From assembly GCA_900542735.1 (NCBI GenBank), contig UQOS01000003.1, positions 6,821 through 70,820 of the forward strand: DNA of 64,000 nt, read 5' to 3'. The notes beneath the pieces are model-generated. The model saw only the letters and a program-made list of their open reading frames with translations, was not told the origin of the DNA and made no database searches. Of this stretch, positions 38,480 to 48,650 are shown in pieces (within the stretch, counting starts at the first letter, position 1; every line of letters begins with the position of its first letter). The DNA comes from an uncultured Mycoplasmatota bacterium. GTDB taxonomy: Bacteria > Bacillota_I > Bacilli_A > RF39 > UBA660. The position numbers and the translations under genes were made by a program.

Positions 38480-38532
38480 TAGTTGCATTTGCTAATAATA
38501 TGAAATATGATATCAACAGGGGGGATTTATTT

Positions 38533-39744
38533 ATGGAAGAAACATTAGCACCAATTACATTTCTAAACAAAACTTTCATCTTCTTAGAAAAGAAAGATAA
38601 TAAAATAAAATTTAAATATGAAAATCAAGAAACTTCAGAACTAAGTATTTTAGAACTTATTTATTCTGAAAAAGAAAAAATGCTTACAAAAGTAGACTTA
38701 TATATTTCTATTAACAATGAAATTGAAGAATCATTACATATTCGTAAGGAAACAAAAGATAGTTATGAACTTAGTTATTTCCCATCAAATAATCAACGTG
38801 TAAAAGTTAATAATATGAATAAATTTTATCAACTTAGTATCTATCAAAATTATAGTGAAGTTGATAATGAAATGTATCAAGAAAGTAGCATGATAGAACT
38901 TGCAAAAGCTAATCATAAGAAACATAAAATATTAACTCAAGTGCCACTAGAGGAAAATTGCTTCTGTACTGCTGATAATAAAATAGTCTATGTTTCATCA
39001 AGCTGTATGGAAAAATTAGAAATTATAAAACATGATTTATTTTCTTCCTTGAAAGAATTAGAAAAACTAATACCAACATGGAAACTAAAAGAAGCAAAAA
39101 AGAAAGTTAATAAAGAAATGATTAACAAGGTAATTGATTGCTTTCCTACTAAAAAATATATATACGACCGTGAATATGAATTGGTTGGTATTAATGAAAA
39201 TGCCATTGTTTATCGCAACATGGAAGATGATTTAATGGAAATAGAAATCTATTTAGATGATAATTTAAGTAAAGTAAAAGAACTAAGATTTATATCTTAT
39301 AATAAAAATAAATTTCTAACAGAAGGAGTTAGAAAAAAGTTTTCTATTATTAGAGCAATTCCTCAAGATGATAAAACTGTATATTCAAGCTTATGTAGTA
39401 GAAAAGAAGGTAGTATGTTAATAAATGGGGCAACTCACTCTAAATGTAATATTTCAGCAGAAGCTATTATCTCAGAGGAAAATTATGCTATTACTGATAT
39501 GAATTTAAAATTATTTGGTAAGTTTGGCGTAATTGAATTAAAGCAATCTCCAATTAATCATAGAGAATTTATAGATAAAAATGATATCTACTATCATATA
39601 TCATCTGTAACATACGGTACATACAGAATGTTGATTTTGATTGCTCCAGGTATTATCAATAAATTTAATTCATTTTTAGTAGAAGGTAAAGAAGAATCTA
39701 AAGCTATTCAATTAGTAAAAAAAGAAGATACTTCAAATATTTGA
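38533..39744 (+). CDS. Hypothetical protein
   Basis: ~400-aa ORF; ATG 38533 preceded by RBS AGGGGGGA (track start 38500 also possible); no recognisable motifs. Confidence 0.3.
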
Positions 39745-39835
39745 AAAGTATAATAGTGATATAAACAAGAGAGTAATTACTTTCTTGTTTTCTTATAGAA
39801 TAAATGGTAAAATACATACATCTAAGGAGGCCATT

Positions 39836-41794
39836 ATGTTTAAATTAGAATCAAAATATACACCTAATGGTGATCAACCACAAGCAATTAAGGAATTAGT
39901 AGAAGGAATTAAAGAAGGAAAAAGAGACCAAGTTTTACTAGGAGCAACGGGAACTGGAAAAACTTTTACGATTGCAAATGTAATCGCGAGTGTTAATAAA
40001 CCAACTCTAGTTTTAGCTCATAATAAGACACTTGCAGGGCAACTCTATTCGGAATTAAAAGAGTTGTTTCCAGAAAATCATGTATGTTATTTTGTATCTT
40101 ACTATGATTATTACCAACCAGAAGCCTATGTACCATCAACAGATACTTATATAGAAAAAGATTCCTCTATTAATGATGAAATTGATGAACTTCGTCACTA
40201 CGCAACAAGCTCTCTTTTATCTTATGATGATGTCATTGTAGTAGCCAGTGTAAGCTGTATTTATGGTATTGGTGAAGTAGAAGAATATCGTAATAAAATG
40301 TTAAGTCTAGGAGTAGGAGATAATGTAGAAAGAAACACTATTATGACAAAACTAGTAGAAATGATGTATGAAAGAAATGATTTTGATTTTAAGCGTGGTA
40401 CATTTAGAGTAAAGGGTGATGTTCTAGAAATCATACCAGCCTATGAAAACACAAAAGGGTATAGAATTGAATTTTTTGGTGATGAAATAGATAGAATTAG
40501 TGAAATAGACTCTCTAACTGGAGTAGTTCTTCAAAATAAAAAAACATTAACTATTTTTCCAGCCAGTCACTTTGTAACTAGTGATGAAAAACTAATAGAG
40601 GCAGTGAAAAGAATTAAGTTAGAATTAGCTGATAGGATTCAATATTTTAAAGATAATAATAAACTACTAGCAGCAGAAAGAATAGAACAACGTACAAACT
40701 ATGATATAGAAATGTTAACTGAAACAGGATTCTGTCGTGGTATTGAAAACTATTCTCGTCATATGGCTTTACGTGGTGAAGGAGAAACTCCAACTACTTT
40801 AATGGATTTCTTTACAAAAGATTTTTTATTAGTAATAGATGAATCCCATGTAACACTTCCTCAGGTAAGGGGAATGTATAATGGTGATAGAGCTAGAAAA
40901 ATGAATTTAGTAGAGTATGGCTTTAGACTACCAAGTGCACTAGATAACAGACCATTAAAATTTGAGGAATTTGAGAAAAAAATCAATCAAGTTATTTATG
41001 TATCAGCAACCCCAGGAGATTACGAATTAGAAAAGACTAGTAATCAGTTTATTGAACAAATTATTCGTCCAACTGGACTTCTTGATCCAACAATTGAAGT
41101 AAGACCAAGTAAAGGTCAAATTGATGATTTAATTGGTGAAATTAAAGATAGAATTGCGAAAAACGAACGTACTTTAATAACTACTCTAACAATTAGAATG
41201 GCAGAAGAATTAACGAATTATCTAAAAGATATTGATATTAAAGTGGCATACTTACATAGTGAAGTAAAAACACTAGAAAGAATGCGTATCATTAGAGATT
41301 TAAGATTAGGTAAATATGACTGTATTGTGGGAATTAATTTACTTCGTGAAGGAATAGATATACCAGAAGTTAGTTTAATAGCAATTATGGACGCTGATAA
41401 AGAAGGATTCTTGCGTAGTGAAAGAAGTTTAATTCAAACAATCGGTAGATGTGCTAGAAATGCTAGTGGTCATTGTATCATGTATGCTGATAAAATAACG
41501 GATAGTATGGATAAAGCCATCAAAGAAACAATGCGTCGTCGTACAATCCAAGAAGAATATAATAAAGAACATGGTATTATTCCACAAACAATTAAAAAAG
41601 AAATTAGAGATTTAATTAGTAATGTTGATGATAACAAAGAAAAACAATCATCTCCTAAGAAGAAAGATAAAAAAGAATTATTAAAGATGATAGATGAAAT
41701 AGAAGAATCTATGAGAGAAGCAGCAAAGGAATTAGATTTCGAACGTGCTATGCAGTTAAGAGATGCATTATTTGAATTAAAGAGTGAATTATAA
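39836..41794 (+). CDS. uvrB: Excinuclease ABC subunit B
   Basis: ATG 39836 after AAGGAGG; helicase motifs ([22 protein letters not shown]) and C-terminal UVR domain ([12 protein letters not shown]). Confidence 0.95.
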
Positions 41795-42633
41795 TGAAAA
41801 AGTTTAAGAAAATATATATAGAAATCACGAATATCTGTAATCTGAATTGCTCTTTTTGCAGTAAAGATAATCGTATAAAAGAAAGTATTTCGCTAACGAA
41901 TATGGAAGAACTATTAAAGAAAATTAATGATTATACCGATTATGTTTATCTACATGTAAAAGGTGAACCATTACTACATCCAAAGTTAAAAGGAATCTTA
42001 GATTTATGTGAAAAATATCATAAGAAAGTAAATATTACGACAAATGCTACTCTGATAAAGGAAAAAGAAGAAATATTAACTCACACTGCTATTCGTCAAA
42101 TTAATTTATCTGTACATAGTGAAAATAAAAAAGCTAATTATCTAGAAGAAATATTTGAAGTAGTGGATAAATTAAAAGATAAAAACATTGTTTACCGTTT
42201 TTGGACTATGGAAGATAATAATTTATCAAAAGAATCAACAGAATTAGTGGAAAAAATAGTAAGTCATTATCAGTTATCCCCAGAAATTGTGGAAAACCTA
42301 AAAAAAGAAAATAATATCAAAATAAATAGTCACACTTATGTGAATAAAGCAAATGAATTCATCTGGCCTGATATCAATAACGATTATAATAAAGAATTTG
42401 GTTACTGTTATGCCTTAAAGGATCAATTAGCTATTTTAGTAGACGGAACTATCGTACCATGTTGCTTGGATAGTGATGGAGTAATCAATTTAGGAAACAT
42501 TTATCAGAATGATTTATTACAAGTTATAAATAGTAGCCGCTATCAAAAAATGAGAATGGGGTTCTGTAATCGTAAGGTAACAGAAGAATTATGTAAACAC
42601 TGTAGTTATAAAGAAAGATTTGACATAAAATAA
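41794..42633 (+). CDS. Radical SAM enzyme with C-terminal SPASM/twitch-like Cys-rich domain, function unknown
   Basis: 279 aa; CNLNCSFC (Cx3Cx2C) at aa 15-22; C-terminal GYCYA...DGTIVPCC...C-x8-C-x2-C cluster; start overlaps uvrB stop (TAATG). Confidence 0.75.
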   Translation: MKKFKKIYIEITNICNLNCSFCSKDNRIKESISLTNMEELLKKINDYTDYVYLHVKGEPLLHPKLKGILDLCEKYHKKVNITTNATLIKEKEEILTHTAIRQINLSVHSENKKANYLEEIFEVVDKLKDKNIVYRFWTMEDNNLSKESTELVEKIVSHYQLSPEIVENLKKENNIKINSHTYVNKANEFIWPDINNDYNKEFGYCYALKDQLAILVDGTIVPCCLDSDGVINLGNIYQNDLLQVINSSRYQKMRMGFCNRKVTEELCKHCSYKERFDIK

Positions 42634-42668
42634 TGGTCAAGATACTATAAATTTATAGAGGTGGAAAA

Positions 42669-43148
42669 ATGAAAGTAATTAGAAATAGTGTATGTTATGT
42701 AGAAAAAAATGATATTTTATTCCTAGGAATGTTACCAGAAGAAATAGTAGAAGCACCTTTTATTGTAGAATCAAAGTGGGTAAAGTTTGAAAATCAAAAA
42801 GCAGTTAACTTTTTTAGAGAAACAGAAGTTATTATAGATTATGATGAACTTAGTAACAAAAAAGAAGAAGAGTTACTAGAAACCGAGAATAAAGTTGAAA
42901 AAGAATTAAATGATATTTGCACCAAATGGTTATATGCTTCTAGTTATTACCGTAGAAATTTAGATAAAGACCCAGAATATAATGAAAAAATAAAAGAATT
43001 AAAATATTTATTAGCAACTATCAAGAATTATCTTAGTGAAAAAACTAACTATGATAATGAAATTAGACAATTATCATTTGATACTACAGTTACTTCTACC
43101 AAAAAGAGTCAACCAAAAGAAAAAAATTTAATAAATAATAAGGCATAA
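42669..43148 (+). CDS. Hypothetical protein
   Basis: 159-aa ORF after the radical-SAM gene; RBS AGAGGTGGAAAA. Confidence 0.3.
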   Translation: MKVIRNSVCYVEKNDILFLGMLPEEIVEAPFIVESKWVKFENQKAVNFFRETEVIIDYDELSNKKEEELLETENKVEKELNDICTKWLYASSYYRRNLDKDPEYNEKIKELKYLLATIKNYLSEKTNYDNEIRQLSFDTTVTSTKKSQPKEKNLINNKA

Positions 43149-43186
43149 TTACCATTATTTTGGAAAAAATACCAATAAAAATTTAA

Positions 43187-43215
43187 TTGACACTTAGGTA
43201 TTTATATAGTAAAAT
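43187..43215 (+). promoter_or_regulatory. SigA-type promoter (TTGACA-17-TAAAAT) for the 43254 ORF, followed by an RBS-occluding hairpin TTCTCCTA-n8-TAGGAGAA (43220-43243)
   Basis: Consensus -35 at 43187-43192, 17-bp spacer, -10 at 43210-43215. The 8-bp perfect inverted repeat's right arm contains the AGGAGAA RBS. Confidence 0.45.
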
Positions 43216-43253
43216 AATTCTCCTAGTTTAAATTAGGAGAAAAGGTGATTTTT

Positions 43254-43553
43254 ATGGGAATTTACAACAAAGTATATATTGGTCATGTAGAAACCATTAA
43301 TCCAGATGTAATAGAAAATGTATCCCCTGTGGAATCTAAAGTAGTTGCCTTAAAATTAGCTAGCATAGATAAAGTAACTAGTATTCCAACTTATAAACCA
43401 TTAAGACCATATAGTGAATATTATAAGTTAGTAAGTGTAGATAGTAAGCCATTAGAAGGACCTCTTGGAAATATTGTTGATGATAAAATTATTAATATAG
43501 CACTTAAAAAGACAGGCAAAAAAGAAGTAAAACAATTAAAAAAGGTAAGTTAA
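43254..43553 (+). CDS. Hypothetical protein
   Basis: 99 aa from ATG 43254 (RBS AGGAGAAAAGGTGA); Cys-free; followed by hairpin terminator AGATTCAT-n6-ATGAATCTTTTT (43565-43590). Confidence 0.3.
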   Translation: MGIYNKVYIGHVETINPDVIENVSPVESKVVALKLASIDKVTSIPTYKPLRPYSEYYKLVSVDSKPLEGPLGNIVDDKIINIALKKTGKKEVKQLKKVS

Positions 43554-43690
43554 ACAAGATTCATATCAAAATGAATCTTTTTAAATATGAAAAAAAGTAT
43601 TGTCAAACAAATGTTTTATCATTATAATAGAAATGTGTTTTCATAAAAAAGAAAATTTGTGGTATAATAACATGCAGAAAAGGTGATAGT

Positions 43691-46498
43691 ATGGATAAAA
43701 TTATTATAAAAGGTGCTAGAGAAAATAATTTAAAAAATGTGGATTTAGAGTTACCAAAAAATAAATTAATAGTAATGACTGGAGTATCAGGAAGTGGAAA
43801 ATCATCTCTTGCTTTTGATACTATTTATGCCGAAGGTCAAAGAAGATATGTAGAAAGTTTATCGGCTTATGCAAGGCAGTTTTTAGGAGGAACAGAAAAA
43901 CCAGACGTAGATTCTATTGAAGGATTATCTCCTTCTATTAGTATTGACCAAAAAACAACTTCTAAAAACCCTCGTTCAACAGTAGGAACAGTAACGGAAA
44001 TTTATGATTACTTAAGACTTTTATTTGCAAGAATTGGAATCCCTTATTGCCCAGAACATCATATTCCAATATCAAGTCAAACTGTTGATGAAATTGTAGA
44101 TAAAGTATTAGAAAATGAAATAGGTACCAAGTTAATTATTATGGCGCCAGTTGCTCATGGTGAAAAAGGTACTCATAAAGATTTATTAGAAGACCTAAGA
44201 AAAGAAGGTTATGTAAGAGTAAGAGTAAATGGAGAAATGCTTGATTTAAGTGAAGAAATTAATCTAGAAAAAAATAAAAAAGATAACATTGATGTAATTA
44301 TCGATAGAATTGTTTTAAAAGATGGCATTCGTAGTCGTTTATCAGAATCTATTGAACAAGCTATCAAACTATCAAAGGGAAAAGTAGTAATTGATTATGT
44401 TGGTAATAAGGAAGTAATCTATTCTGAAAACTTTGCTTGTCCATACTGTGATTTCTCACTTCCAGAATTAGAACCAAGAATGTTCTCATTTAATGCACCA
44501 TTTTGTAGTTGCCCTGACTGTAAAGGCCTTGGTGTGAAACTAAAAATGGATCCTGATTTAGTAGTACCAGACGCTACTAAAAGTCTAAATAATGGAGCTA
44601 TTAAAACTTTAACAGATGATCCTGAAGCACTTGATTTTAAACGATTAGAATGTTTATGTAAGCATTATAAAATAGATATGAATAAATCATGGAATAAACT
44701 ATCTAAAAAAGAACAGAATTACATTTTATATGGTAGTGATGAAATAATCCATTTTCAGTATCATTCTAAAAGTGGTAACCTTTATAATCAAAAAGATTTC
44801 TATGAAGGAATTATCAATAATCTAGAAAGAAGATACATGGAAACAAGTAGTACCTGGATTCGTGATTGGTTAGAAAATTATATGTTAGAAACCATATGTG
44901 AAACATGTCATGGAGCAAGACTTCAAGATAATGTCTTATCAGTTTTAGTAGGTGGAAAAAACATTTACGAAGTTACTTGTATGAGTATTAAACAATTAAT
45001 CCCTTTCTTTGAAAATCTAAAATTAACGAAATCTCAAAAAGAAATATCAGGATTATTAGTAAAAGAAATTTTATCTCGATTAACATTCTTAAAAAATGTA
45101 GGACTTGAATATTTAACGCTAAGTCGTTCTGCTGGCACATTATCAGGTGGAGAAGCCCAAAGAATAAGACTTGCTACACAAATAGGTTCTAAACTAACAG
45201 GAGTTCTTTATGTACTAGACGAGCCAAGTATAGGATTACACCAAAAAGATAACGAAAAATTAATTAAATCATTATTAGAAATGAGAGATTTAGGAAATAC
45301 CCTAATCGTAGTAGAACATGATACTGATACAATGTTAGCCAGTGACTTTTTAGTAGATGTAGGACCTGGTGCTGGAGATCATGGTGGAGAAATCATTGCT
45401 GCTGGTACTCCAGAAGAAGTAATGAAAAACAAAAATAGTATTACTGGTCGTTATTTAAGTGGTAAAGAAAAAATAGAAGTACCTACTACTAGAAGAAAAG
45501 GTACTAAAAAGTTTATTGAAATTAAAGGTGCAAGTGAAAATAATCTAAAAAATATTAATGTTAAATTTCCACTAGGAACCTTTACTTGTGTTACAGGTGT
45601 ATCTGGAAGTGGAAAAAGTACCTTAGTAAATCAGATTTTATGTAATGCTGCTTATCAAAAAATATATAATTCCAAGGTGAAACCAGGTAAACATAAAAAA
45701 ATAACCGGTTTAGAAGAAATTGATAAGGTAGTTGAAATTAGTCAAAACCCAATCGGTAGAACGCCAAGAAGTAATCCAGCTACCTATACAGGAGTATTTG
45801 ATGAAATCAGAGATTTATTCACAACTACGAAAGAAGCTAAAATGTATGGCTTTGGAAAAGACCGTTTTTCTTTCAATGTAAAAGGTGGTCGTTGTGAAGC
45901 TTGCCGTGGTGACGGTGTTAAAAAAATAGAAATGCATTTCTTACCAGATGTATATATTCCATGTGAAGTATGTCATGGTACAAGGTATAATAGTGAAACC
46001 TTAAGAATAAAATATAAAGACAAAAATATTGCTGAAGTATTAGATATGCGTGTAAGTGAAGCACTTGAATTCTTTGAAAATGTTCCTAAAATCAAATCTA
46101 AACTTCAAGTGTTAGAAGATGTAGGAATTGGTTACATTAAATTAGGACAAAGTGCTACAACTTTATCAGGTGGGGAAGCAGGACGTGTAAAACTAGCTAA
46201 AGAATTACAGAAAAAGCCAACTGGTAAAACACTTTACATTATGGACGAACCTACAACAGGTCTTCATAGTGCTGATATTAAGAGATTACTTGCAATTATT
46301 CAAAAAATAGTAGATAATAAAGATACTGTAATAGTAATTGAACACAACCTAGACGTCGTAAAATGTGCTGATTATATAATTGATTTAGGACCAACTGGTG
46401 GAGATGGTGGTGGAGAAGTAATCGCTACTGGAACACCAGAAGAAATTGCGAAGGTAAAAGAGTCAGCTACAGGAGAGTTCTTAAAGAAAATGTTATAA
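43691..46498 (+). CDS. uvrA: Excinuclease ABC subunit A
   Basis: 935 aa; two ABC modules (GVSGSGKSSLA; LSGGEAQRIRLA; GVSGSGKSTLV; LSGGEAGRVKLA) and zinc fingers (CPYCD..CPDC; CEACRGDG..CEVCHG). Own promoter TTGTCA-17-TATAAT at 43608-43636. Confidence 0.97.
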   Translation: MDKIIIKGARENNLKNVDLELPKNKLIVMTGVSGSGKSSLAFDTIYAEGQRRYVESLSAYARQFLGGTEKPDVDSIEGLSPSISIDQKTTSKNPRSTVGTVTEIYDYLRLLFARIGIPYCPEHHIPISSQTVDEIVDKVLENEIGTKLIIMAPVAHGEKGTHKDLLEDLRKEGYVRVRVNGEMLDLSEEINLEKNKKDNIDVIIDRIVLKDGIRSRLSESIEQAIKLSKGKVVIDYVGNKEVIYSENFACPYCDFSLPELEPRMFSFNAPFCSCPDCKGLGVKLKMDPDLVVPDATKSLNNGAIKTLTDDPEALDFKRLECLCKHYKIDMNKSWNKLSKKEQNYILYGSDEIIHFQYHSKSGNLYNQKDFYEGIINNLERRYMETSSTWIRDWLENYMLETICETCHGARLQDNVLSVLVGGKNIYEVTCMSIKQLIPFFENLKLTKSQKEISGLLVKEILSRLTFLKNVGLEYLTLSRSAGTLSGGEAQRIRLATQIGSKLTGVLYVLDEPSIGLHQKDNEKLIKSLLEMRDLGNTLIVVEHDTDTMLASDFLVDVGPGAGDHGGEIIAAGTPEEVMKNKNSITGRYLSGKEKIEVPTTRRKGTKKFIEIKGASENNLKNINVKFPLGTFTCVTGVSGSGKSTLVNQILCNAAYQKIYNSKVKPGKHKKITGLEEIDKVVEISQNPIGRTPRSNPATYTGVFDEIRDLFTTTKEAKMYGFGKDRFSFNVKGGRCEACRGDGVKKIEMHFLPDVYIPCEVCHGTRYNSETLRIKYKDKNIAEVLDMRVSEALEFFENVPKIKSKLQVLEDVGIGYIKLGQSATTLSGGEAGRVKLAKELQKKPTGKTLYIMDEPTTGLHSADIKRLLAIIQKIVDNKDTVIVIEHNLDVVKCADYIIDLGPTGGDGGGEVIATGTPEEIAKVKESATGEFLKKML

Positions 46499-46519
46499 AA
46501 TAAAAAATAAGGTGATTAG

Positions 46520-46936
46520 ATGCAAAAAGAATTAAGGGTTCATATTGAAAATATTATTGATTGGTTATTACATTTTATAAGCTATGCCATTATTTTGGTA
46601 TTTGTAGCAACATACTTTGATAGCTTTAAAATAGATGATACTCATTTATATCTATATGGCCTTTTAGCTACCCTAATTATTTTTATACTAAATAAGACCA
46701 TTAAGCCAATTATTTTTAGATTAACATTACCAATAACTGGTTTAACACTTGGCTTATTTTATCCATTTATTAATGTAGTTATTTTAAAATTAACAGAGTG
46801 GATACTGGGATCTCACTTTGAAATTCATGGAATATGGACAGTCTTTTTTATCGCAATCTTAATTTCTATTATGAATATTTTAATTGAAAACATTATCATT
46901 ACACCAATTATGAGGAGGATAAAGAAAAATGGATAG
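46520..46936 (+). CDS. YvlD/DUF360 (phage holin family 4-like) membrane protein
   Basis: 138 aa, 3-4 TM; same position (between uvrA and lgt) as the yvl genes in Bacillus. Confidence 0.5.
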   Translation: MQKELRVHIENIIDWLLHFISYAIILVFVATYFDSFKIDDTHLYLYGLLATLIIFILNKTIKPIIFRLTLPITGLTLGLFYPFINVVILKLTEWILGSHFEIHGIWTVFFIAILISIMNILIENIIITPIMRRIKKNG

Positions 46937-47741
46937 AGTAGCATTGGATTTAGGATTTATACAAATATACTGGTATTCAGTTTTTATCTTTTTAGGAGTC
47001 TTTTTTGCTAGTATGGTAATATTAAGAGAAACAAAAAGGCAACACATTAATCAAGACTTTATGATTAATTTAATCTTTTATGGCGTTATCTTTGGTCTTA
47101 TTGGGGCAAGATTATATTATGTTTTATTTAATTTAGATTATTATTTAAAATACCCATTAGAAATTTTGGAAGTTTGGAATGGTGGTCTAGCAATTCATGG
47201 TGGAATTATTGTAGGATTATTAACTGTAATCTTATATACAAAAAAGTATCACGCAAAAACCTTAAAAGTATTAGATATCTTAGTAGTAGGTTTAATCTTA
47301 GGACAGGCTATTGGTAGATGGGGTAATTTCTTTAATGGCGAAGCATATGGAATGGTAACTACTTTAGAACATTTGCAGAAATTAGGATTACCAGACTATT
47401 TGATAAATGGAATGTATATTAATGGAGCTTACCATCAACCTACTTTTTTATATGAATCCATTTGGGACTTTTCAGGATTTATTGCTTTATTAATTGTAAG
47501 AAGATACAAATACCTAAAGAATGGTCAGCTAACCGGAGTATATTTAATTTGGTACTCAGTAGGAAGAATCATAATTGAAGGAATGCGTACAGATAGTCTA
47601 ATGTTAGGAAATTTCCGTATTGCCCAAATTGTATCTATTATATTAATTATCGTTGGAGTATTAATGTTATTTCTATGTAAAAAAGGAACAAGATTCGATA
47701 ACTTATATAAAGATAAAGAAGAAAAAGATATATTATTTTAA
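46929..47741 (+). CDS. lgt: Prolipoprotein diacylglyceryl transferase
   Basis: Lgt signature GRWGNFFNGEAYG plus HGGIIVG and 7 TM. Confidence 0.9.
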   Translation: MDRVALDLGFIQIYWYSVFIFLGVFFASMVILRETKRQHINQDFMINLIFYGVIFGLIGARLYYVLFNLDYYLKYPLEILEVWNGGLAIHGGIIVGLLTVILYTKKYHAKTLKVLDILVVGLILGQAIGRWGNFFNGEAYGMVTTLEHLQKLGLPDYLINGMYINGAYHQPTFLYESIWDFSGFIALLIVRRYKYLKNGQLTGVYLIWYSVGRIIIEGMRTDSLMLGNFRIAQIVSIILIIVGVLMLFLCKKGTRFDNLYKDKEEKDILF

Positions 47742-47750
47742 GGAGGCATT

Positions 47751-48650
47751 ATGTATCATACAGTAATTATAGGTTCTGGTGTAGCTGGAATGACAGCAGC
47801 CATATACTTAAAAAGAGCGCGTAAAGATATTTGTATTTTAGAAAATGGAGTACCTGGTGGTCAAATAACATTAGCATCATCTGTTGAAAACTATCCAGGT
47901 TTTTCTTCTATTACTGGTAGCGATTTAGCACTAAATATTTATAATCAAGTATTAAATTTAGGGGTTACCTATAAATATACAAAAGCAAATCAAGTTAAAG
48001 TAGAAGATGATTTTATTACTGTAATAACAGATAAAGAAGAAATTAAATGTAAAAATTTAATCATTGCAACCGGCAGAGCACCAAGAAAATTAGAAGTAAC
48101 ACTAGAAGATAGACTAGTAGGTAGTGGAATCAGTTTCTGTGCTACCTGTGATAGTAGTCTTTATAAAGACAAAAAAGTAGCCGTTGTTGGTGGTGGAACA
48201 GCAGCTTTAGAAGAAGCAATTTATCTATCTAAAATATGTAATAGTGTTACACTAATTCATAGAAGAGATACATTTAGTGCTACAGATGCCTTAGTAAATG
48301 ATGTCAAAAATACGAAAAATATAACGATTTTAACGAATAGAACGGTAAAAGAATTCAAAGTAAATGATAATAAATTATCTGGTATTGTGTTAGAAGATAA
48401 ACAGAATAATCAAGAAGAAATAACGGTAGACGGTTGTTTTGAATATATAGGTCAAGTACCAAATACAAAAATATTTGAAAACTTAGATATTCTAGATGAT
48501 AAAGGTTATGTAAATGTAGATAAAAATTATCAGACTAAAATATCTGGAATATATGCAGTTGGTGACTGTGTCAAAAAAGATTTATATCAAGTAGTAACTG
48601 CTTGTAGTGAAGGTGCAATTGCTGCAAACAATATCATAAAACAGAGATAG
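47751..48650 (+). CDS. trxB: Thioredoxin-disulfide reductase (low-MW TrxR family)
   Basis: FAD motif IIGSGVAGMTAA; redox-active CATCD; NADPH motif VVGGGTAALEEA; 299 aa. Confidence 0.75.
   Translation: MYHTVIIGSGVAGMTAAIYLKRARKDICILENGVPGGQITLASSVENYPGFSSITGSDLALNIYNQVLNLGVTYKYTKANQVKVEDDFITVITDKEEIKCKNLIIATGRAPRKLEVTLEDRLVGSGISFCATCDSSLYKDKKVAVVGGGTAALEEAIYLSKICNSVTLIHRRDTFSATDALVNDVKNTKNITILTNRTVKEFKVNDNKLSGIVLEDKQNNQEEITVDGCFEYIGQVPNTKIFENLDILDDKGYVNVDKNYQTKISGIYAVGDCVKKDLYQVVTACSEGAIAANNIIKQR

Follow-up and report, generated by a model that had tools for sequence, protein, structure and literature searches.

BtrN, the 2-deoxy-scyllo-inosamine dehydrogenase of butirosin biosynthesis (PDB 4m7s/4m7t), is a small radical S-adenosylmethionine (SAM) enzyme in which a CX3CX2C motif at residues 15-23 and an abbreviated barrel are followed by a Twitch domain, whose auxiliary cluster is held by four cysteines (PMC10337720). 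At the level of the fold, SpeY, BlsE, DesII, MoaA and viperin belong to the same circle; they have small-molecule, sugar or nucleotide substrates and no peptide-recognition domain. In contrast, the SPASM maturases that act on ribosomally made, post-translationally modified peptides (RiPPs) and the anSME proteins (e.g., AlbA, SuiB, PqqE, and anSMEcpe) have seven to eight cysteines for a pair of auxiliary clusters and, typically, an N-terminal RiPP recognition element (RRE) and a neighboring precursor gene. Two further radical SAM enzymes matter for what follows: the spore photoproduct lyase SplB, which lacks an auxiliary cluster, and QueL (C. difficile CD1684), a standalone salvage enzyme of gut Firmicutes that takes queuine to preQ1. 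Here, we describe a 279-aa radical SAM protein (hereafter rSAM) encoded at positions 41794..42633 of a 64,000-nucleotide stretch, referred to as the window, from contig UQOS01000003.1 of an uncultured Mycoplasmatota bacterium. Its gene lies on the forward strand, as do the features reported below from the uvrB promoter to uvrA, between the excision-repair genes uvrB and uvrA. A first reading made without database searches (the sequence-only reading) had given the gene order as uvrB, the 279-aa gene, open reading frames (ORFs) of 159 and 99 aa (orf159 and orf99), and uvrA; this order was as stated, and Pfam identified both UvrB and UvrA.

The protein matched Radical_SAM (PF04055) at residues 9-132 (E = 1.4e-13; 51.8 bits versus a cutoff of 29.5) and SPASM (PF13186) at residues 205-270 (E = 6.8e-14; 52.3 bits versus 21.5), and the CX3CX2C motif read earlier at residues 15-22 corresponds to C15, C19, and C22. 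Conservation was assessed in 79 family members from the fetched loci, in which all three cysteines were present in 100%, and in 143 representatives collected without pattern bias, in which the conservation of C19 and C22 was 95% or higher and that of C15 was 80 to 95%. The SAM motif G57-E58-P59-L60, at least 95% conserved, aligned with "YGEPLL" of BtrN, and H54, H62, T83-N84, S106, R135, W137, and F189xWP were likewise invariant in the family. For the C-terminal part, the sequence-only reading had proposed a SPASM- or Twitch-like cluster of six to seven cysteines. A C-terminal cluster domain is indeed present, but the SPASM count did not hold: of six cysteines here, five were kept family-wide (C205, C223, C224, C267, and C270), while C258 was a cysteine in only 11% of relatives. 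The seven-cysteine SPASM motif (CX9-15GX4C ... CX2CX5CX3C ... C) was not matched, the CX2CX5CX3C block being absent. Since there are too few conserved cysteines for this motif, the domain appears to be Twitch-like, with one auxiliary cluster, rather than a two-cluster SPASM domain.

The comparison with BtrN pointed in the same direction. With a profile of the family, the best match was BtrN (E = 5.5e-14), which was hit in two separate stretches that took in both its core and its Twitch domain; profile residues 210-271 aligned with BtrN residues 174-236, so that PC(C) fell on LPC, LCKHC on LCKNC, and C267/C270 on C232/C235 of BtrN. Both proteins fall in the range of 250 to 280 aa, and the four auxiliary cysteines are spaced nearly identically (205/223/267/270 in rSAM). 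An AlphaFold (AF2) model of rSAM had a mean predicted local distance difference test (pLDDT) score of 80.7, and its best PDB fold match in Foldseek was BtrN (4m7t; E = 5.7e-10; template modeling [TM] score 0.60 by query and 0.67 by target; 274 columns), a moderate rather than close similarity, followed by SuiB, MoaA, EpeE, BlsE, SpeY, viperin, and DesII. From the cysteine pattern and the modeled fold, we conclude that rSAM is a predicted BtrN-like Twitch radical SAM enzyme with one SAM-binding and one auxiliary [4Fe-4S] cluster, for which the predicted ligands are C15/C19/C22 and C205, C223 (or C224), C267, and C270, respectively. However, identity to BtrN was only about 15 to 17%, the family has an additional invariant cysteine (forming a CC pair) as well as H54, H62, R135, W137, and F189xWP, and no aminoglycoside gene was found in any of the 171 loci analyzed (80 species-level genome loci, 80 metagenome loci seeded from distant Clostridia-type family members, and 11 loci from exact look-up). 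The substrate certainly differs from that of BtrN. Nor did the NCBIfam search, which had been proposed together with the Pfam one, place the enzyme in a subfamily: no family reached its cutoff, neither the best match, TIGR04317 (56 bits versus 380), nor MoaA (49.5 versus 284), viperin (39 versus 180), or PqqE (34.5 versus 381), and the MoaA and viperin matches covered the N-terminal core only. In PHROG and PADLOC, the enzyme obtained only generic radical SAM or viperin-core matches.

The SPASM match in Pfam, the presence of SuiB, EpeE, and CteB-type peptide modifiers among the fold matches, and the small ORFs directly downstream could all be taken to mean that rSAM is a RiPP-type maturase whose target is one of the two downstream products, of 159 and 99 aa, which was one of the suggestions of the sequence-only reading. 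The distribution of the two ORFs largely refuted this. Within the clade of the window (clade A, below), orf159 was found in 3 and orf99 in 10 to 11 of 30 genomes, both were absent from clade B and from all other carriers, and the recurrent linkage to rSAM homologs that had been envisaged was not seen outside the immediate subclade. Moreover, orf99 contains no cysteine and has an invariant promoter of its own, no conserved protease or exporter gene lies nearby, and, unlike the RiPP maturases, rSAM has five conserved cysteines, a single predicted auxiliary cluster, and neither an RRE nor a conserved precursor. With its cluster motif beginning at residue 15, the enzyme has no space for an N-terminal recognition domain. 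On size and cluster position, the earlier judgment stands: the enzyme is too small to be a RiPP maturase, and its cluster lies too close to the N terminus for it to be a spore photoproduct lyase. We regard peptide maturation as very improbable.

The gene neighborhood gave a different picture. Clade A comprises the window and 30 genomes, all from uncultured gut or rumen "Bacilli". In all 30 species-level genomes, uvrB lay 5' of the rSAM gene, with rSAM identities down to 47%, and in 20 of them the gap between the two genes was only -8 to +11 nt. In the window, the last A of the uvrB stop codon TAA (41792-41794) is the first base of the rSAM start codon ATG (41794-41796), which confirms the TAATG overlap noted before (41792-41796), and the two genes are, judging by this arrangement, almost certainly co-transcribed. 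Four loci (L022, L023, L024, and L027) had uvrA directly after rSAM, giving a minimal uvrB-rSAM-uvrA operon, and in three others (L005, L008, and L012), rSAM had remained beside uvrB where uvrA had moved off. Whereas all other occupants of the uvrB-uvrA gap varied, rSAM was the only constant one.

A second link to excision repair was seen in clade B, which consists of 20 loci labeled Tenericutes, Mycoplasma, or Bacilli. Here, uvrC followed rSAM in 18 loci; rSAM was the first gene of the operon, and of the 17 loci whose spacing was analyzed, 16 showed an overlap of 4 or 17 nt between its stop codon and the beginning of uvrC. The downstream gene product (588 aa) was identified as UvrC by its Pfam domains, i.e., GIY-YIG, two UvrC RNase-H domains, and a helix-hairpin-helix domain (HhH). 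In a neighbor-joining tree of rSAM, clades A and B were distinct monophyletic groups, clade B and a small clade C were the sisters of clade A, and all three were set apart from a Clostridia/Bacillales group. One clade C locus (L056) retained uvrB, rSAM, lgt, and trxB within 7 kb in scrambled order, as A-type remnants, and for this reason gene order suggests that the linkage to uvrB is ancestral and that the linkage to uvrC arose by a later rearrangement. In four clade C loci (L051, L062, L079, and L080), a gene for desulfoferrodoxin (superoxide reductase) was located directly 5' of rSAM, and at a Lachnospiraceae locus (L068, 1535-2392), a gene for a TrxB-like flavoprotein started 14 nt after rSAM; these neighbors could be redox partners or reflect oxidative-stress contexts. 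Conserved linkage to uvr genes, the absence of which would have spoken for an unrelated housekeeping enzyme, was thus evident both as uvrB-rSAM in 30 species-level genomes and as an overlap with uvrC in the sister clade.

Given that selection appears to have placed rSAM twice with genes of nucleotide excision repair (NER), uvrB/uvrA here and uvrC in the sister clade, we propose as a working hypothesis that the enzyme is functionally tied to excision repair or DNA-damage handling, with a probability of about 45%. If a genome has about 1000 genes, a relocated gene would, by our own rough estimate, come to adjoin one of the three NER genes by chance in around 1% of cases. In this clade of AT-rich gut Bacilli, rSAM would be built into the uvrB-uvrA operon and made from the uvrB transcript through termination-reinitiation at TAATG, and its role would be in NER or in dealing with DNA or nucleotides that have been damaged. 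As to the chemistry, we infer from the analogy with BtrN and other Twitch enzymes that the reduced N-terminal cluster would cleave SAM to yield a 5'-deoxyadenosyl radical, that this radical would take a hydrogen atom from a carbon of a sugar- or nucleoside-like substrate, and that the auxiliary cluster would accept an electron, for a net dehydrogenation. Alternatively, the invariant Cys224 might return a hydrogen atom, resulting in a redox-neutral rearrangement or repair, as in spore photoproduct lyase and EpeE.

Roughly level with this proposal stands the explanation that rSAM is a hitch-hiker, i.e., a housekeeping enzyme for the modification of a cofactor, lipid, RNA, or small metabolite, unrelated to repair, and that its placement arose as compact, rearranging genomes packed unrelated genes into constitutively expressed operons. 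Several observations favor this explanation and weigh against a role in repair. The remaining loci, about 115 in number and belonging to neither clade (Clostridia, Bacillales, Fusobacteriota, and others, with Clostridium, Anaerocolumna, Ilyobacter, Desulfobulbaceae, Brevibacillus, Paenibacillus, Cohnella, Neobacillus, and Cytobacillus among them), contained no uvr or other recurrent repair neighbor and no conserved partner; rSAM stood alone among essentially random and mutually unrelated genes (cation efflux, MCP, HrpB, aldo-keto reductase, MFS, isochorismatase, SfsA, pseudouridine synthase, MscL, and TrxB-like). Among aerobic Bacillales genera, in which uvrB and uvrA are contiguous elsewhere, orthologs were 78 to 89% identical, and an identity of about 80% across such genera is no less compatible with a conserved small-molecule substrate than with any other explanation. 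In relatives, the gap between uvrB and uvrA also held folD, a PgeF-like Cu-oxidase_4 gene, a bacterial PH-domain gene, an ABC exporter, a DUF2752 gene, and a cohesin-like gene (extra gap genes at L001, 5094-5999; L009 and L010, 2651-4438; L002, 7763-8152; and L003, 7773-8531), and additional genes lay between uvrB and rSAM in L013-L018, L025, and L029. Because unrelated genes occupy it, the gap seems to be a permissive site. Tight spacing was also common: 17 of 50 same-strand neighbor pairs in the window (34%) were at most 10 nt apart, so the TAATG overlap alone is weak evidence for a functional link. The median pI of the family was 7.6, which is not notably basic, and, as clades A and B are sisters, their "two independent events" amount effectively to one extra rearrangement. 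On the other hand, hitch-hiking has to put it down to coincidence that one and the same gene shares an operon with uvrB/uvrA in clade A and runs into uvrC in clade B, its sister, and it has to explain why rSAM alone is constant in the gap.

Signs of SOS control were also missing. The sequence-only reading had raised the possibility of a LexA box upstream of uvrB. No Cheo/LexA box was found in the window near uvrB, rSAM, orf99, or uvrA, and none upstream of uvrB in clade A; likewise, GAAC-N4-GTTC occurred in none of 160 loci within 250 nt upstream of rSAM, where 0.9 occurrences were expected by chance. These results, too, favor hitch-hiking over a role in repair. A literature search found no paper that ties a radical SAM/SPASM gene to uvrA, uvrB, or uvrC, and Aravind's work on SOS contexts dealt with SplB-like enzymes only. 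One metagenome contig resembling Brevibacillus (L098, 1-5071) carried genes for a UvrA-like paralog (44% identity, C-terminal part), DoxX, rSAM, and UvdE, a UV-damage endonuclease. We rejected this locus as a third repair context, since an 88%-identical Brevibacillus ortholog had other neighbors and UvdE was present at no other locus, and this again speaks against a repair role. DinB_2 neighbors (L095 and L168) were given no weight, as this family is rich in paralogs.

Two further explanations bear on the same loci. Being operonic with uvrB/uvrA as well as with uvrC, and having anSME-type relatives that modify proteins, rSAM might be a maturase that post-translationally modifies UvrA, UvrB, or UvrC. 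However, most carriers encode rSAM far from uvr genes, clades A and B do not share any one Uvr partner, and the Uvr proteins of model bacteria work without such a modification. We consider this very unlikely. Slightly better placed, though still improbable, is an enzyme of nucleoside or queuine salvage, such as QueL or a similar enzyme oxidizing C-N or C-O bonds. QueL is itself a radical SAM enzyme of gut Firmicutes without a specific InterPro family; in Brevibacillus, rSAM comes after genes for a QueK-family nucleoside hydrolase (IU_nuc_hydro), a NupC transporter, and a GNAT protein, and in Cytobacillus it neighbors a 5'-nucleotidase gene. An amine-to-imine oxidation would, in addition, suit a BtrN-like dehydrogenase. 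Yet, among 168 loci, the hydrolase and transporter neighbors were confined to Brevibacillus, the usual queK/queT neighborhood was absent, rSAM did not cluster recurrently with queK, queT/qrtT, or tgt, and no riboswitch was found upstream of rSAM in the 11 loci with long leaders that were scanned, the TPP and NiCo riboswitches detected there belonging to neighboring genes. QueL was indexed by its authors under the Elp3-type IPR006638 and not under SPASM. It also scored 0 in its authors' Paenibacillus genomes, whereas the rSAM family is widespread in Paenibacillus; this point is weak, as the species differ.

If the tie to repair is real, SplB would be the functional analog, with a possible cysteine hydrogen-atom donor as a shared trait. 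The two differ in architecture, as SplB lacks an auxiliary cluster and the rSAM family has a Twitch domain, and the SplB family was neither among the best 25 NCBIfam matches of rSAM nor among its Pfam, PDB-sequence, or fold matches. A bolder version of the repair hypothesis, which we hold to be unlikely, is that the family represents another type of DNA-repair enzyme within the radical SAM group, one without relation to spore photoproduct lyase, which would work with UvrABC and use radical chemistry to reverse or process a lesion. Candidate lesions would then be C-C or C-N cross-linked ones, e.g., 5',8-cyclopurines or inter-strand adducts, and another candidate substrate would be the damaged nucleoside or oligonucleotide that excision sets free. 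In this scheme, Cys224 would donate the hydrogen atom, and the auxiliary cluster would relay electrons.

The family as a whole comprised about 441 clusters at 50% identity (E ≤ 1e-30). The best 150 representatives were all single-domain proteins of 229 to 333 aa without any domain fusion, and the sources name the family only as "radical SAM/SPASM domain-containing protein"; it is an uncharacterized, vertically inherited, single-domain family. The highly similar orthologs mentioned above came from Brevibacillus, Paenibacillus, Cohnella, Neobacillus, Cytobacillus, Psychrobacillus, and Ammoniphilus (proteins P0360-P0479), showing that the family is present in aerobes too and not limited to anaerobes. 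At one distant locus (L054, 4924-5750), a gene for a membrane protein controlled by a thiamine pyrophosphate (TPP) riboswitch lay beside the rSAM ortholog, and at two others (L070, 3038-5777; L165, 6165-9703) the neighbors were thiF/G/H(/E) operons. A thiamine context was rejected as a partner, since these three distant loci, two of them probably related, are about what chance would give.

The two ORFs that follow rSAM in the window, by their distribution, appear to be clade-restricted fillers of the permissive gap and not partners of the enzyme. The first, orf159 (42669..43148; 159 aa), is preceded by a strong Shine-Dalgarno (SD) sequence (GAGGTGG) and was present on all identical-strain contigs, and it matched no Pfam, NCBIfam, PHROG, or PADLOC family. 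It was found in only three related species, with amino acid identities of 91%, 42%, and 47%. As UvrA in the same genomes was 95 to 100% identical, against 42 to 47% for orf159, the ORF seems to evolve very fast, under either relaxed constraint or diversifying selection. The second, orf99 (43254..43553; 99 aa), had 89 homologs in 5.8 billion proteins, all at least 48% identical and all from the immediate subclade. None of these had a Pfam domain, and PHROG and PADLOC returned nothing meaningful for orf99. Its AF2 model was beta-rich (pLDDT 89.7) and matched no known fold in the PDB (best Foldseek E value, 0.14). A mechanical call had given orf99 as a 102-aa ORF starting at GTG; this was rejected in favor of the ATG at 43254, which was conserved in 9 of 9 relatives.

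The consensus promoter and SD-pairing hairpin that the sequence-only reading had assigned to orf99 were both borne out. The promoter, of the sigma-70 type (TTGACA-17-TAAAAT; 43187..43215), had 11 of 12 matches in a consensus scan, and in 9 species-level relatives neither of its hexamers varied, whereas the sequence on either side diverged. It is followed by a 10-bp hairpin (43218..43241), supported by folding and conservation, in which an anti-SD (TCTCC) pairs with the orf99 SD (AGGAGA); this pair was kept in 9 of 9 relatives, and the 71-nt leader region had a folding energy of -12.9 kcal/mol (z = -2.2). The 5' arm of the hairpin starts 3 nt past the -10 element, so that a complete stem is expected only in RNA that reads through from the uvrB operon; in this way, the hairpin, which overlaps the predicted start of transcription, may restrict translation of orf99 to promoter-derived transcripts. 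A terminator-like hairpin with a T-run follows orf99 (43556..43584; -9.5 kcal/mol, z = -3.4); its AT-rich stem was missed by a simple terminator scan. With these signals, orf99 is predicted to be a separate transcription unit.

Downstream, uvrA (43691..46498; 935 aa; Pfam UvrA_inter, UvrA_DNA-bind, and ABC_tran) is preceded by two good promoter-like sites at 43600..43668 (TTGTCA-17-TATAAT, 11/12; TG-extended TATAAT, 10/12), and for this reason it appears to have its own promoter in this strain, separate from uvrB-rSAM. At the other end of the locus, uvrB (39836..41794; 652 aa; Pfam UvrB_inter, UvrB, Helicase_C, and UVR) starts at ATG 39836 after AAGGAGG, and public gene calls on identical contigs likewise give 652 aa; a TTG at 39785 was dropped as the start in favor of this ATG. 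A putative extended -10 promoter of uvrB (TGgTAAAAT; 39805..39813) was found by reading the sequence; its -35 is weak, hence it was missed by the consensus scan, and it sits 3' of the hairpin closing the preceding gene. That gene is a 414-aa ORF (38500-39744) directly 5' of uvrB, with no match in Pfam, PHROG, or PADLOC and with a hairpin and T-run between it and the uvrB promoter.

The window is AT-rich (25 to 33% GC). Its genes are arranged as is typical for Bacillota, with ftsEX-like genes and an M23 peptidase gene followed by uvrB and uvrA, then by a holin-like gene, lgt, and trxB, and lastly by a CofD-family (yvcK-like) gene and whiA. No Rfam family matched the whole window or the islet between uvrB and uvrA at E values up to 1. 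An identical 279-aa protein was encoded on 16 public contigs, with the same islet at all three places inspected. In two loci with the identical protein (L169 and L170, 5097-7899), the region 5' of uvrB was a different one, with a 102-aa fragment resembling the UvrB N terminus (ResIII/DEAD), an NT5C gene, and a GH2 glycosidase gene before the full uvrB, which suggests an insertion that duplicated the uvrB 5' end. Across 39836-48650, DNA identity to the species-level genomes L001, L002, L003, and L004 was a mosaic. Against L002, it was 95% for uvrB, 87% for rSAM, 68% for orf159, 75% for orf99, and 97 to 98.5% for uvrA, followed by 83% for the holin gene, 81% for lgt, and 77% for trxB; against L001, it was 95% for uvrB, 85% for rSAM, 95% for orf159 and the next spacer, and 87% for orf99. 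Against a background of about 80% identity, uvrB and uvrA (and orf159, in the case of L001) look to have been recently exchanged by recombination.

The placement of rSAM within excision-repair operons is unusual and conserved, and it is worth experiment since cultured, genetically tractable carriers exist (Brevibacillus, Paenibacillus, and Clostridium). Even if rSAM is a hitch-hiker, a well-defined and highly conserved family with tractable carriers is a ready target for the discovery of function. If the tie to repair is true, a widespread Twitch enzyme that evolution has on two occasions made part of excision-repair operons would indicate an unrecognized chemistry of repair or damage clean-up, one that would include abundant, uncultured Bacilli of the human gut.

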